Assembly: GCA_965202665.1 (NCBI GenBank)
Contig: OZ241841.1
Span: forward strand, 1,792,001 to 1,856,000
Direction of reading: 5' to 3'
Length of the DNA: 64,000 bases
Origin: Candidatus Spongiisociaceae bacterium
GTDB taxonomy: Bacteria; Actinomycetota; Acidimicrobiia; Spongiisociales; Spongiisociaceae
Shown here: piece after piece, positions 48,354-55,284 of the stretch
Layout: each line of letters begins with the position of its first letter
Numbering within the stretch: the stretch's first letter is position 1
Notes under the pieces: generated by a model
The model's database searches: none
Told to the model about the DNA's origin: nothing
The model's input: only the letters and a program-made list of their open reading frames with translations
Translations under genes and position numbers: made by a program

Positions 48354-49361
48354 TTACCAGAGGTCCTGTTCGCGGATTCCGAAGGAGGGGTGGCGCAACC
48401 GGCACAAGGCCAATTTTTCCAGTTGGCGGATTCGTTCCCGGGTCAGGTTGAACTGCTTGCCGATTTCCTCCAAGGTGAGGGGATGTTCGCCGTTGAATCC
48501 GTAGCGCATGGACAGAATTGTCCCTTCCCGGTCCGGCAGGCGCCGGATGGATTTGAGCAACGCCCCGTACACGTCTTGGTCTTCGGTGTGGCGCAACGGG
48601 TCCACCGCTTCCTCGTCTTCGATGAAATCGCCCAACAGGGCCCCGTCTTCGCCGATCGGTTTTTCCAACGAGGCGGTGTCGGAGACGCTCAGGGCCAGCT
48701 CCACTTTTTCCTCCGTCACCCCCGCCTCTTGGGCGATCTCCGGGATTTTCGGATCCCGTCCCAACTCCGCTTTCAGGCTGGCCTGGGCGGCCCGCACCGA
48801 AGCCAGCGTGTCATGCAGATGGACGGGGATGCGCACCGTGCGCGACTTGTCGGCGATGGCCCGGGTGATGGCCTGGCGTATCCACCAAGTGGCGTAAGTG
48901 GAGAATTTGAAACCTTTGCGCCAGTCGAACTTCTCCACCGCCCGGATCAGCCCCAGGTTGCCTTCCTGAATCAGATCCAGCAGGTCAATCCCGGACGTGT
49001 TGGAATACTTGCGGGCGTTGGACACCACCAGCCGCAGGTTGGCGGTCAGGAAATTGTCTTTGGCTTCTTGGCCTTTGCGCACTTTGCGCTCCAAAGCGGT
49101 CCGCACTTTGGTGTTGCGCCGCGGATTTCTCTCATCCAGTTCGCGAGTGGCTTCATGCCCGGCTTCTATCTTCTGCGCCAACTCCACTTCCTGGTCGGCG
49201 GTGAGCAACTCATATTCGCCGATGCCGGTCAGATACTGGCCCACCAGATCAGTGGTGAGGCGGCCGCGCTCGTCGGTGAGGCGGTTCAGTTCACGGGCGC
49301 GCCCGTTAGCCGCTTCCCCGTTCCCCGTTTTAACTTGTACCGCGTTGCCGGTGGTCGCCAT
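48354..49361 (-). CDS. RNA polymerase sigma-70 factor, RpoD/SigA family lacking region 1.1 (group 2-like)
   Basis: [63 protein letters not shown]. Confidence 0.92.
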
Positions 49362-49712
49362 GGATCCCTCCAATCCCTACGATACATCCTACAGCCTTTG
49401 ACGCGGACAGGCGGGGCAGTGCGCCGCCTGCGCGCGACCGATTCCAAAGGCCGCAGGTTCCTGGTACCGTTCCTATTACGCTACGCGCGTTTTTTCTTTC
49501 CGGATAGGTCCTGCTACTACAACCTAATTGAAGCCGTTTGTATTCCATCGGAACTTGCCCTTTCGTTTAGGATACCCCTGTTACGGGGAAACGCGCGCCA
49601 TTCGGACTTTTGCCCGAACCCCTCCCTTAGACTGGCGCAACCGATCGGGGGTTGCCATCCTTTCCACCATATCAAACTATCCGGGGCCTGTGACAAGTTT
49701 GCGGCGGGGGAA

Positions 49713-51785: not shown

Positions 51786-52829
51786 ATGCGCTACTTTAAA
51801 TGGGATAAGTACCATCTTCTCGTCAAGATAATAGCCATAGCTTTGGTTATTGCTCTTGCCATTGTAATAGTGGTTTTCCTATGGCGGAGCCTGTCGGTGG
51901 TGGAGTCGGAGCGCGCAAACCTGCAGGTAGAGTTGAATAATGCTACGGCGGAAAGAGATGCTTTACAGTCTAAGGTGTCCTCTATAGAAAGATTCTCTGC
52001 TAAAGAAAAATGGGAGGAGGCGGCCACCGCTTGGGAAGCAGTTGAAGCACCCCTGAATGCTTGGCGAGAAGCATGGGAGGTTACGAATACTAGTCCGGAT
52101 CTAGATGTTGACCTCTTCGATCCGGTTGCTTTATATGACTGGACGGAGAATACGAAGGATTGGTTGGTAGATTTTGAAAATACTATAGATGCTAGAGATA
52201 GAACACTCGAATTATTGGAGGTTGCTTGGGAAACTACCGCGGTTGCTTGGGATGTTTCTGCTCTGTTGTGGGATATAGAAGAAAAAGATATAGCTGCCAT
52301 AGCTGCTAAATCTGCCGCTTTACAAGCTAATAAAGCCGCTATTGCTAGGAGAAATGCTAGATTAGCAACGACGGATTTGATATCCTCCATGACACTTGAC
52401 TTGAATGTAAGGCTGGATGTTCTAAATGTTATCTCGCGAATACTTATCGAGAACCAAGATTTAGAGAGCCGGGTGAGGAACCTAGATGTCGCAACAGAGA
52501 TATTAGATGTTGTTGTGCAGTCTACTGACAAAATTGTATCTACCAAGAGGGCAATCTTTGATACTGCGGGAGATACCGCGTGGGAAGCTGCAGGTGATAC
52601 GGCAGCATATTTCGCTCAGGCTAGCGATTCTTTAGCTGACGTTTATGAAGGTTTTCATTGGCAAAATGTTAGGGATATCTGGACGGCGGTAGCTAATTCT
52701 TACCAATTGGTTGCAGAAGAAAATACTGGTGCCATGGAGGCTAGAATTTCTGCAGTGAACGCGATTAAGGAAACCCGGGATGCCTACAACGCAACCGCTG
52801 GTTCGGAAGAAAGCGAGGGAGGGACGTGA
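51786..52829 (+). CDS. AT-rich membrane-anchored helical hypothetical protein
   Basis: N-terminal TM, coiled coil, Ala/Trp-rich helices (AWE repeats); GTGA overlap with the next gene. Confidence 0.7.
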   Translation: MRYFKWDKYHLLVKIIAIALVIALAIVIVVFLWRSLSVVESERANLQVELNNATAERDALQSKVSSIERFSAKEKWEEAATAWEAVEAPLNAWREAWEVTNTSPDLDVDLFDPVALYDWTENTKDWLVDFENTIDARDRTLELLEVAWETTAVAWDVSALLWDIEEKDIAAIAAKSAALQANKAAIARRNARLATTDLISSMTLDLNVRLDVLNVISRILIENQDLESRVRNLDVATEILDVVVQSTDKIVSTKRAIFDTAGDTAWEAAGDTAAYFAQASDSLADVYEGFHWQNVRDIWTAVANSYQLVAEENTGAMEARISAVNAIKETRDAYNATAGSEESEGGT

Positions 52830-53776
52830 TACGCGAGAACGCGGTTGATGCTGTTGGGGGGACTCCCTTGGTGCGGCTGGGACGGTTGCATCCGGCGGGG
52901 AATCTGGCGGCCAAAGTGGAATACATGAACCCGGCCGGGTCGGTCAAGGAGCGGATCGCGGTCAATATGATCGACCGTGCTGAACAGCAGGGACTGCTCG
53001 GTCCGGGCGGGACCATCGTGGAACCCACTTCGGGCAACACCGGGGCCGGGTTGGCCATGGTGGGGGCGGTGCGGGGCTACCGGGTGATCTGCACCGTGCC
53101 CGACAAGGTTTCTCCTGAAAAAATCGCCCTGCTGCGGGCCTACGGGGCGGAAGTGATCGTCACCCCCACCGAGCTGCTGCCGGAAGACCCCGACTCCTAC
53201 TACGGGATCGCCCGTCGCCTCACCGCCGAAATCGACGGGGCTTTCTCACCCGATCAGTACTCCAACCCTTACAACCCGGAGGCGCATTATCTGACCACCG
53301 GTCCGGAAATCTGGGAGCAGACCGGCGGGGAAGTGGATGTGTTCGTGGCCGGGGTGGGCACCGGCGGCACCATCACCGGGGTGGGACGTTACCTGCGGGA
53401 GCGCAAACCGGAGGTGGAAATGGTGGGGGCCGACCCGGAGGGCTCCATTTTTACGGCGGCCCGCGAGGAGGACATCCATCAGTACCGGGTGGAAGGAGTG
53501 GGGGAGGACTTTTGGCCGGCCACCCTGGAACGGGAAATAGTCAGCCGCTACATAATGGTTGACGACCATCAGTCGTTCGCCGCCGCCCGCCGTTTGGCGG
53601 AAACCGAAGGGTTGCTGGTGGGGGGGTCGGGGGGGATGGCCGTCCACGCCGCCCGGCAAGTGGCCGAGGAGGACGACCGGCTGGTGGTGGTGTTGCTGCC
53701 CGACTCCGGCCGGGGCTACCTGTCCAAGATCTGGAACGAAGAGTGGCTGGCCGAACACGGCTTCGCCCCGTCCTGA
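52826..53776 (+). CDS. PLP-dependent cysteine synthase / cystathionine beta-synthase family protein
   Basis: G.TPLV, K.E..NP.GSVK.R, EPTSGNTG.GLA, GVGTGGTI.G, EG.G, PDSGR.YLSK. Confidence 0.92.
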   Translation: MIRENAVDAVGGTPLVRLGRLHPAGNLAAKVEYMNPAGSVKERIAVNMIDRAEQQGLLGPGGTIVEPTSGNTGAGLAMVGAVRGYRVICTVPDKVSPEKIALLRAYGAEVIVTPTELLPEDPDSYYGIARRLTAEIDGAFSPDQYSNPYNPEAHYLTTGPEIWEQTGGEVDVFVAGVGTGGTITGVGRYLRERKPEVEMVGADPEGSIFTAAREEDIHQYRVEGVGEDFWPATLEREIVSRYIMVDDHQSFAAARRLAETEGLLVGGSGGMAVHAARQVAEEDDRLVVVLLPDSGRGYLSKIWNEEWLAEHGFAPS

Positions 53777-53797
53777 CCGGCATCCCCCGCCCAAATT

Positions 53798-53839
53798 GAA
53801 AGAGAGCCCCCGGTAATCCGAGGGCCCTCTTCACTTTTC
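53798..53839. terminator. Bidirectional intrinsic terminator
   Basis: gaaagagagcccccgg-taat-ccgagggccctcttcacttttc, with T-rich tails on both strands. Confidence 0.75.
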
Positions 53840-53978
53840 AACCCGCCCCGTGCTTCGCCGTTATCGGGGGCGCCTCATGAGGACTTGGCATGAGGTGGGG
53901 AGGACCGGGTGGTCCGAGTTGGAGTCGCTACCTGGCACAAACCGAAAAACGGTCCGTGAAAGCGACCCTTGTGGCCGC

Positions 53979-54023
53979 TTAGCGCTCGGCCACCTCCAGA
54001 GTCCTGCGTAAACCAGTTGTCAA
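53979..54023 (-). CDS. Putative 14-aa small peptide MTTGLRRTLEVAER
   Basis: AAAGGAGGT SD 8 nt upstream of TTG; the stop lies in the loop of hairpin GTGGCCG/CGGCCAC. Confidence 0.5.
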   Translation of the reverse strand: MTTGLRRTLEVAER

Positions 54024-54054
54024 GTTGGACCACCTCCTTTCTCTGGTAGCCCCC

Positions 54055-54083
54055 AGGTTAGCGCGCCCCGCCCCCGGCGCCAA
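54055..54083 (-). promoter_or_regulatory. Sigma-70-type promoter
   Basis: TTGGCG-17 nt-TAACCT on the minus strand. Confidence 0.55.
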
Positions 54084-54304: not shown

Positions 54305-54886
54305 TCAGCCGAGGGCGGCGCGGAAGGCGCTCCACAGGTCGGCCAAGGCGGAGGTTAGGCCTCCCAAAGCCCAGCGGAACAGCAGAATCAGAATGAGGAC
54401 GCCGGCGGTGGTGAACACCATCCGCGCCCGGTAAGTGACCACTTGGTCGGGGTCCTCCAGGTAGGAGGGGACGGCGGAGGGGGCTTTGGCCAGGCGGCGG
54501 CGCTGGGCGAAGGCCGCACCCGCCCGGTTGAAGACGGAACTGATCCGCAACCGGGCCGAACCGGAGCGGGAAACCGGCGGCGGCTCGCCGGAATCGGCCG
54601 GGGAAGGCTCCCGGGGGGCGTCCAGTTCCGGTTGGTAGGGCGGGGGCGGGACGGTTTCCGGCAACCCCCCGGACACCCGGATCGCCTCCCGCAACAGCGA
54701 AGCGGGAAGGGAAACGGCGGTGGCCACCGCCGTCACATCGGCGGCCCCGGGAACGGAAACGCCGTTTTCCCATTCCTCCACCGCCTCCTCCGGCCATTGG
54801 AGGCGCCCGGCCAGCCCCTCCCGGGACAAACCCAGCTCCTCCCGTCGTTGGGCCAGCAACGAGGCGAACCCGGTTTCCTCCGTCAT
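54305..54886 (-). CDS. XRE-family HTH protein with C-terminal TM helix
   Basis: RREELGLSRE.LA.RL......V.EWENG...P; hydrophobic C-terminus; TGATG coupling to the upstream gene. Confidence 0.75.
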   Translation of the reverse strand: MTEETGFASLLAQRREELGLSREGLAGRLQWPEEAVEEWENGVSVPGAADVTAVATAVSLPASLLREAIRVSGGLPETVPPPPYQPELDAPREPSPADSGEPPPVSRSGSARLRISSVFNRAGAAFAQRRRLAKAPSAVPSYLEDPDQVVTYRARMVFTTAGVLILILLFRWALGGLTSALADLWSAFRAALG

Positions 54887-55284
54887 CAGTGGGGCGGGTT
54901 TTCCGGGACGCTGTCCGGCTCCGGCCCGTCGGTCAGGCGCAACGTCCCCACGTCTTTGACGTTCCAGCACAGGGTGCGTCCCTGCGGGATGTTCAACCTG
55001 ATGGACCCCCCGGCCGCCTCCCCGTCTATCAGCAGTTCCCCGCGGGAGGCCTCCGCCAGCGGGATGGAAGCCGAATAGTCCCCGGCGGAGTTGACCACCG
55101 TCACATGCGAAGCCTCCGGTTCAGGGAGGCAGGCGTCCAGCACCGCCCCCACTCCCACCGCCGCGCCTCCGGCGGGGGAGGGGCGGGCCAGGCAACGCAA
55201 AGCCTCTTCGCCCCAAAGGCCGGGCCGGGCGGCCAAGCCGGTGATTTCCAGCCGGGCCGGGCGGGCGGGGCGGGCGTGCGTCAT
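54886..55284 (-). CDS. Molybdopterin-oxidoreductase-like small protein
   Basis: Y.ASIPL and GG.IRL.IP....CWNVKDV..L pattern; family assignment is inference. Confidence 0.6.
   Translation of the reverse strand: MTHARPARPARLEITGLAARPGLWGEEALRCLARPSPAGGAAVGVGAVLDACLPEPEASHVTVVNSAGDYSASIPLAEASRGELLIDGEAAGGSIRLNIPQGRTLCWNVKDVGTLRLTDGPEPDSVPENPPH

Follow-up and report, generated by a model that had tools for sequence, protein, structure and literature searches.

The minus strand of the window (the whole 64,000-nt stretch of DNA analysed) carries a single-copy RNA gene of ~250 nt (54047–53797), which raises the questions of whether it represents a new family and what an RNA that combines extensive structure with a short ORF might do. 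All motifs named in the initial annotation (promoter, Shine-Dalgarno (SD) sequence, TTG-initiated ORF, second SD, complementary strands and terminator, 53832–53799) are in place. The predicted transcript runs from A54047 (+1, placed by a conserved 5′ AC and its spacing from the −10) to the end of the terminator, and is preceded by hexamers TTGGCG (54083–54078) and TAACCT (54060–54055) separated by 17 nt. The −35-like hexamer is weak with respect to consensus (TTGACA in the same-genus homologue L002), and the position of the −10 is backed by homologues, with YANNNT found 5–8 nt upstream of the conserved AC in 172/201, vs 9/201 in a control window. A scan for consensus promoters and terminators around the locus listed neither the promoter nor the terminator of the RNA, and no promoter on the plus strand. 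The terminator hairpin (53799–53832, minus strand) is probably shared with a convergent plus-strand gene of the PALP family (cysteine synthase/CBS-like; 52826–53776), which lies outside the RNA. Upstream, an ORF on the minus strand (54305–54970) ends ~260 nt before the RNA; it belongs to the HTH_3 family in homologous loci (HTH matches for L007 and L035), with no Pfam match at 1e-6 for the window copy. The predicted fold of a 256-nt stretch is better than that of 197/200 shuffled sequences (z −2.9; 3/200 equally good). Together with the −10 position and the conservation of locus and ORF described below, this supports the annotation's self-contained structured RNA with its own putative promoter and a real short ORF. 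Elsewhere in the window are a SAM riboswitch (RF00162; 18607–18688, plus strand; 67 bits, above cut-off) and a 339-aa ORF (48354–49373, minus strand) that by eye resembles a primary-type sigma-70 factor.

Scanning the locus with Rfam gave no family above its cut-off. However, the Ms_IGR-5 model (RF02471) aligned over its entire length (model positions 1–184) with 20.3 bits (E 0.038) and, because this is below the gathering cut-off of 45 bits, the RNA was filed as a divergent homologue rather than as a member at cut-off. Blastn identified one locus in 40/41 related genomes, the genome without a match being 72% complete, and RF02471 matched the coordinates of this locus in most of the 41. Two of these relatives exceed the cut-off at loci linked to the window by blastn (G028, 46.5 bits; G039, 48.7 bits), and G028 is enough to make the case for an orthologue above cut-off without G039, an unpublished genome; unpublished genomes also enter two rows (L021 and L066), the blastn and RF02471 tallies over the 41 relatives and the 151-genome phylum tallies given below. 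The conserved sequence blocks of Ms_IGR-5 (M. smegmatis IGR-5/ncMSMEG15794c; M. abscessus ncMab10731), i.e. the 5′ AC, GAAAGGAGGUGGUCC, GGAC, GAGGUGGC, the GGCGA junction, CACC and the GUCC-loop motif, are found in identical order in the window copy over the full model; a three-way P3 junction and a separate terminator set the window copy apart. With a joint core model (69 positions, built from 73 sequences), the window scored 67 bits vs 55–75 bits for full RF02471 members, many of which are training rows. These comparisons indicate a divergent Ms_IGR-5 homologue and not a new family; the annotation had matched the RNA to none of tmRNA, RNase P, SRP or 6C RNA. The RNA is thus a new and divergent variant of a catalogued family whose anatomy has gone unrecognised in the searchable papers, and the same variant type is present in named Acidimicrobiia records (L104 and L155).

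Searching with the RF02471 profile gave matches in 55/151 genomes of the same phylum (19 above cut-off) and in 0/14 controls. A motif scan of a species collection gave at least 120 matches, of which L183, L194 and L195 were dropped as chance; the others listed include six named records from outside the Actinomycetota (Ignavibacteria, Acidobacteriota, Leptospira and Eisenbacteria). The core model matched 73/151 own-phylum genomes at E < 1e-8 (many being training rows), with 12 weaker matches that on reading correspond to a longer variant, and also 7/81 genomes in the phylum of G190 (E < 1e-7), 38/101 in that of G189, 8/81 in that of G188 and 18/41 in that of G191. Several copies from other phyla exceed the RF02471 cut-off on their own, and the homologues span five phyla. 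Most small-genome Actinomycetota gave no core-model match. The RNA is single-copy in nearly all genomes, with two copies in G060 (L059 and L098) and G631. Pattern matches in viral contigs (21) were rejected as chance, the stop being present in 0/21, and a stricter pattern gave none in these contigs.

The fold supported by covariation differs from those of the initial annotation and of Rfam, comprising three helices that lock the ORF and a pseudoknot that reaches from a 3′ loop onto the ORF (all strands on the minus strand). P1 pairs CCAGA (54042–54046) with TCTGG (53996–54000), P2 pairs GGTGGCCGAG (53985–53994) with CTCGGACCACC (53908–53918) and P3 pairs CGCTA (53980–53984), which contains the first two bases of the stop codon, with TAGCG (53926–53930). 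A further hairpin, P5 (53873–53895; double changes at 6/7 pairs), sits within a lineage-variable P4 stem (about 53907–53838) and carries in its loop GTCCT (53884–53880), the 3′ strand of the pseudoknot, which pairs with AGGAC inside the ORF (54001–54005). In an alignment of 38 close homologues, P1, P2, P3, P5 and the pseudoknot together have 96.1% of cells paired and double changes at 10 pairs, with 0/500 shuffles as high and slid controls 32–39% paired; taken singly, P2 has 99.7% of cells paired (double changes at 2/10 pairs) and P3 100%. Because kinship inflates this test, it was run again on a set of 195 sequences, in which a pairing-blind HMM placed the 3′ domain. In this set the four column pairs with the highest mutual information, out of 6750, are P1 and P2 pairs, the two top-ranked being in P1. 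The four pairs of the pseudoknot are paired in 749/750 cells, with compensatory changes at two (G-C to C-G (10) and A-U (5) at one, C-G to U-A (11) at the other), the GA of its 5′ strand having been pre-fixed by the search pattern in part of the sequence set. P4-P5 is missing from copies in the Ignavibacteria phylum, most Acidobacteriota and most Eisenbacteria, and copies without this domain also lack GGAC.

Beyond P3 the constrained fold has two variable hairpins (53936–53979), P3a (53979–53961) and P3b (53958–53936); compensatory changes seen by eye in P3a of L035, L037 and L104 were left out of the counts. Between P3 and P2 lies a conserved unpaired junction, ACTCCAA (53919–53925; AATCC-like in most phyla), kept as A(A/C)UCC in all five phyla, for which no pairing partner was found across the homologues and which is possibly a protein or tertiary contact. 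An HDV-like ribozyme was considered for the GGCGA junction and dropped, as the topology differs and there is no such Rfam match. The Rfam consensus structure of Ms_IGR-5, labelled Actinobacteria, contains neither P1, P2 nor the pseudoknot. Among the hairpins originally proposed, CCTCATG/CATGAGG is supported by the alignment of 38 homologues, whereas in the same alignment the nested stem GTCGCT/AGCGAC (85% of cells paired, no double change, 250/500 shuffles as high) and the GGACC/GGTCC hairpin (76% paired, 500/500 shuffles as high) are unsupported. The stop codon, placed by the annotation in a hairpin loop, is instead paired in P3, and CCACCTC, described there as able to pair with either GAGGTGG, is unconserved outside the genus.

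The SD-occluding switch stands in part. In the proposed helix, GGACCACC (53915–53908), which is within the 3′ strand of P2 and normally pairs with GGTGGCCGAG of the ORF, would take GGTGGTCC beside the SD (54034–54027) as its alternative partner in this lineage. The switch and conserved folds have predicted energies of −107.8 and −108.0 kcal/mol, respectively, in this genome, with the pseudoknot uncounted, and the switch helix forms in the model when the footprint of a ribosome at the stop is held open. However, it has no double change and is broken in 9/38 homologues. Across lineages, a switch through P2 reaches −10 kcal/mol or better in 52/177 homologues, and 46/177 have a significant anti-SD in P3. 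On these models, the switch is thermodynamically possible in this genome and is weak in most other lineages. P3 carries a near-exact mimic of the 16S tail in L047, L065, L068, L082, L091, L095 and others, with the mimic in L082 matching its SD A variant.

The ORF (53979–54023) has a TTG start and 14 codons followed by TAA (MTTGLRRTLEVAER), with an AU-rich first half and a paired second half. The second SD-like motif, GGAGGTGG (53990–53997), lies three codons upstream of the stop and begins the 5′ strand of P2. Its GAG GTG is invariant in 72/72 unique ORFs of set A, and the stop lies 15 nt past its G in 236/246 homologues; the same spacing is seen in 90/90 homologues found by blastn or the Rfam model (a motif-less locus, L094, having been dropped from this set) and in 116/120 among the pattern matches listed, vs 0/21 chance viral matches. 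The free part of the ORF has no in-frame stop in 171 unique ORFs, vs 37.9 expected, and across the five phyla 243/246 unique copies are open from start to stop, a count that leaves out L324 (unparsed) and seven loci judged by eye to be noise. The three exceptions are L034 (G031), without an in-frame start, and L380 and L383, where reading by eye gives an open frame whose stop is at offset 17. L034 could be a dead copy, or its missing start could come from a one-base slip or from faulty assembly. One alternative frame of the free part is stop-rich (88/171, vs about 38 expected in frame 0 from shuffles), and in L320 GAGGTG is duplicated within an 18-codon ORF.

Start codons are TTG (113), ATG (60), GTG (33), CTG (18), ATA/ATT/ATC (16) and ACG (3), weak starts (UUG, CUG, AUA, AUC, ACG) accounting for 150/243. 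The peptides (10–18 aa) are hydrophilic and variable, with pN/pS values of 0.91 (free part) and 0.87 (paired part) over 100 nearest-neighbour pairs and changes spread evenly across codon positions. In eight homologues the stop is shifted by −1 or +1 nt and the start is in the shifted frame, giving unrelated peptides (EVA read as GGG or RCL). These patterns argue that the ORF is selected to be translated while the peptide sequence is unconserved. The free part is 39% G+C in loci of 67% G+C, as expected for an open landing pad. Longer variants (L372–L379, L381 and L382 (f26); L380 and L383 (f37)) have an AUA or AUC start and a different 3′ domain. Starts of this type are normally policed by IF3, hinting that these variants might sense initiation fidelity.

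Upstream of the ORF, the SD motif AAAGGAGGT (54040–54032, minus strand) is part of a 17-nt complement of the 3′ tail of 16S rRNA (54026–54042, minus strand; one G-U), located in the P1 loop. The 16S of this genome ends in GGATCACCTCCTTTCT and pairs with the RNA over 17 consecutive bases, the match spanning the whole tail and extending into the last pair of helix 45. Outside the rDNA, the genome has a single further site that reaches 17, and this site misses the 3′ end of the tail; a 15-position pattern occurs twice, at the RNA locus and on the antisense strand of the rDNA. Where the 90 homologues deviate from exact complementarity, the base is still paired in 145 cases and unpaired in 10. Positions opposite a 16S U (five) all vary between A and G, vs none of the six opposite C. 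Transitions are the commonest mutations, which inflates the 145:10 count and favours an A/G pattern of this kind. The A variant, which is incompatible with the internal switch helix, gives a perfect pair with 16S. G at −4 is kept in 90/90 Actinomycetota (set A), 20/20 Ignavibacteria-phylum, 8/8 Acidobacteriota and 12/12 Eisenbacteria copies. Among spirochaetes it is kept in 1/8 copies. The only 16S tail read from this group has U at the corresponding position, and the RNA copy of that genome has C; this covariation is one lineage event. An internal GUCC/GGAC hairpin was rejected as the cause of the SD extension, since GUCC stays fixed where GGAC varies or is lost.

Published reports show that the Ms_IGR-5 family is transcribed, with its own start site, in M. 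smegmatis (PMC10454040), M. abscessus, S. lividans (PMC8079986) and S. avermitilis (PMC8780764). The M. smegmatis homologue is described as validated but uncharacterised and, like Ms1, NAD-capped at an A start (bioRxiv 2021.12.14.472595). No function, ORF or pseudoknot was reported for Ms_IGR-5 in the literature searched, whose coverage excludes most subscription papers and the original IGR-5/Streptomyces sRNA reports; the accessible text of PMC11133741, PMC8388888, PMC11701678, PMC11109978 and bioRxiv 2022.01.24.477521 gives no function for the family, and 12 of the 13 supplementary files of Shell 2015 (PMC4633059) list no ORF at the locus. Ribosome reads were detected on Ms_IGR-5 in M. abscessus and M. 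smegmatis, as on other sRNAs (PMC4974804); a structured ncRNA may give Ribo-seq reads with no translation taking place. In M. abscessus the values are 70.3 RPKM for RNA and 3736.6 RPKM for footprints (monosome-type libraries), a ratio of 53 that is inflated because short RNAs are under-counted in RNA-seq, compared with ≤1.9 for 13 other ncRNA rows among those listed. In the same source, the M. abscessus RNA is up with erythromycin (logFC 2.67; the only ncRNA in that list) and kanamycin (1.14; one of four), and is missing from the hypoxia and sputum lists; the rows found there include no ORF for Ms_IGR-5.

A second Rfam family, CC2171 of Alphaproteobacteria (RF01867; Caulobacter CCNA_R0051 with CCNA_03965), is similarly organised, as a stand-alone RNA with a GAAAGGAGGUG(A/G)UCC(A/G) site, a variable short ORF and its own terminator. 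All 28 parsed copies have an ORF of 14–31 codons after the 16S site, with G at −4 in 27, and a pattern related to the site is found in 71/301 genomes of CC2171's phylum, vs 23 with the reversed pattern. The window RNA shares the arrangement of a 5′ match to the 16S tail followed by a short ORF and scores 17.9 bits against RF01867 (cut-off 75 bits), over the 5′ part only. CC2171 differs in having an AUG or GUG start directly after the site (7 nt from GGAGG), a different fold and no fixed second GAGGUG. The core model gives 14–25 bits on CC2171, mostly from the SD, vs 67 for the window; homology might reach no further than the 5′ site. Many of the CC2171-type loci found (L248–L258, L260, L261, L267 and L284–L312) are below the cut-off, and in these loci a long-range helix often connects the beginning of the ORF with the bases immediately ahead of the terminator. 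A second CC2171-like match in the genome of the window lies within coding DNA and was rejected. According to PMC4117421, the Caulobacter ORF was mapped by ribosome profiling and confirmed as a YFP fusion band; its footprints amount to 0 RPKM in PYE and to 2049 RPKM in M2G, whereas the RNA levels in the two media are similar. PMC6237742 reports the RNA 4.4-fold up with mitomycin C, not specifically.

This combination of features suggests that the RNA loads and holds ribosomes, as a trap or translation sensor in which being translated, and not the peptide, is the function, a reading that we hold with slightly more doubt than belief. It is put forward because the frame is selected without selection on the peptide (0/171 stops, pN/pS ~0.9, eight frame shifts), because the near-unique match to the whole 16S tail is kept across homologues, because CC2171, with an unrelated fold, has the same site and a short ORF, and because of the M. 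abscessus footprint ratio and its rise with erythromycin and kanamycin. Covariation shows that P1 closes a large AU-rich loop, within which lie the 16S-tail match and the start codon, and that the second half of the ORF and its stop are locked by P1, P2 and P3 together with the pseudoknot. A 30S subunit could then be captured by the 16–17-nt duplex, with the weak start slowing commitment, and the ribosome would have to unwind four helices within about eight codons. With the ribosome at the stop, the second GAGGUG would be free, ~8 nt upstream of the codon in the P site and thus at a spacing like that of an SD, and might keep the subunit in place. The 3′ strand of P2, likewise released, could then close the 5′ site in this lineage. 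In the least certain step, the RNA would park ribosomes and be stabilised on stalling, thereby buffering or reporting free translation capacity.

Several points weigh against a ribosome trap. Extended SD sequences in S. aureus are likewise start-proximal, with longer spacers and frequent UUG or other non-canonical starts, and serve normal initiation on ordinary protein-coding mRNAs (PMC13009471), so that the site may be just a strong ribosome-binding site, although the S. aureus extension is two extra pairs compared with the whole-tail match here. An abundance of 70 RPKM, as in M. abscessus, may be too low for buffering ribosomes, and the fixed distance from GAGGUG to stop is also explained by stacking of P2 on P3. 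Many small-genome Actinomycetota and all 14 controls gave no match to the RNA, and the trap reading assigns no role to the conserved AAUCC junction.

The strongest competing reading is a translation-gated trans-acting RNA. Here the ribosome would unzip the pseudoknot and P2 and so free a domain for binding to mRNAs or a protein, be it the anti-SD-like 3′ strand of P2, P4-P5 or the AAUCC junction; binding of the ribosome would be the input and not the output. Selection on the frame supports this equally, and the freed CACC/GGACCACC strand is complementary to SD motifs, the partnerless junction is conserved in all phyla and the internal anti-SD in P3 recurs (46/177). However, there is no long conserved seed, P4-P5 is absent in several lineages, and the reading gives no reason for the match to extend as far as the distal end of the 16S tail. 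It is rather unlikely, if a serious one. Maturation and hibernation factors such as Era and RbfA use the GAUCACC stretch of 16S. The RNA might protect or chaperone the 3′ end of 16S, covering this stretch until translation of the ORF strips it off mature, active subunits; the match across the whole tail into the helix-45 pair, beyond the two extra pairs of S. aureus, and the equal reach of CC2171 would fit. This is improbable given that the RNA is absent or undetected in many genomes with normal 16S maturation and that, in the data available, the footprints are from monosome-type libraries.

Translation of a functional micropeptide, with the structure as translational control (the dual-function sRNA of the initial annotation), would account for the conserved start, stop and open frame, for the recurrent C-terminal EV motif and for the YFP-tagged CC2171 product (PMC4117421). 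It is quite improbable and already disfavoured by the sequence patterns, in which pN/pS is ~0.9, GAG and GTG undergo no synonymous change, the residue before Thr has seven identities that track the pseudoknot, and eight homologues use a different frame for these bases.

An RNA polymerase-binding RNA resembling Ms1 or 6S, also raised by the annotation, is very improbable. The size is similar, and the M. smegmatis homologue is NAD-capped as Ms1 is, yet Ms1 is a separate mycobacterial locus (bioRxiv 2021.12.14.472595). The window locus matches neither RF02566 (Ms1) nor RF00013 (6S) and lacks a long duplex with a central bubble, and this reading leaves the ORF unexplained. In its favour, the whole genome (G000; 94% complete, single contig) has no match to either model at E ≤ 1; this lineage may lack an RNAP-binding RNA or have one that escaped detection.

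As little probability attaches to a leader-peptide attenuator acting in cis on a downstream gene. Promoter, short ORF and alternative helices resemble attenuator anatomy, and Cys/Met enzymes are neighbours in several close relatives, but the neighbours vary by lineage and come from unrelated families, no run of regulatory codons is present, and in place of a conserved same-strand downstream gene the next gene is convergent, both here and in 25/35 loci examined (crude ORF call). The RNA is therefore not a cis-leader, as the annotation had proposed in finding no cis-controlled gene. In the close relatives L001, L003, L006, L007, L032 and L035, the RNA lies among genes for cysteine synthase/CBS-like, Cys/Met PLP-enzyme and HTH proteins; many close relatives have a Cys codon in the ORF, the window ORF has none, and the Cys/Met context is lost further out. 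Least probable is the annotation's type I toxin-antitoxin mRNA, which structure, long-range pairing and possible SD occlusion would allow, the peptides being short, hydrophilic and variable where a conserved hydrophobic toxin is expected, and the gene being single-copy in nearly all genomes with no true match in viral contigs.

Known ribosome-directed RNAs provide partial parallels to the proposed ribosome trap. tmRNA likewise combines pseudoknots with a short ORF inside the RNA, and it engages ribosomes; the window RNA differs in having its own SD and start codon and no tRNA-like domain, with no RF00023 match at the locus, and the tmRNA of this genome lies elsewhere (C1:241965–242319; RF00023, 162.8 bits). 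In attenuators such as trpL and the whiB7 uORF, translation of a short ORF remodels helices in response to ribosome stalling. The window RNA, in contrast, lacks both a downstream gene and regulatory codons, and its match to 16S is far longer.

Ms_IGR-5 and CC2171 are orphan Rfam families of model bacteria (mycobacteria, Streptomyces and Caulobacter), so far without an assigned function. New for Ms_IGR-5 are a covariation-backed pseudoknotted structure, an ORF that is selected yet indifferent to its peptide, complementarity to the entire 16S tail and a spread over five phyla, and this anatomy is now tied to published extreme ribosome loading and to a rise under ribosome-targeting antibiotics. 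More broadly, and with considerable doubt, the two families might be branches of an unrecognised class of RNAs, in at least six phyla, that seize the small subunit by the whole 3′ tail of 16S and use a peptide-indifferent mini-ORF as lock and release, parking or sensing ribosomes under translation stress. If it is true that the RNA parks or senses ribosomes, it would represent a new RNA-level control of translation capacity.
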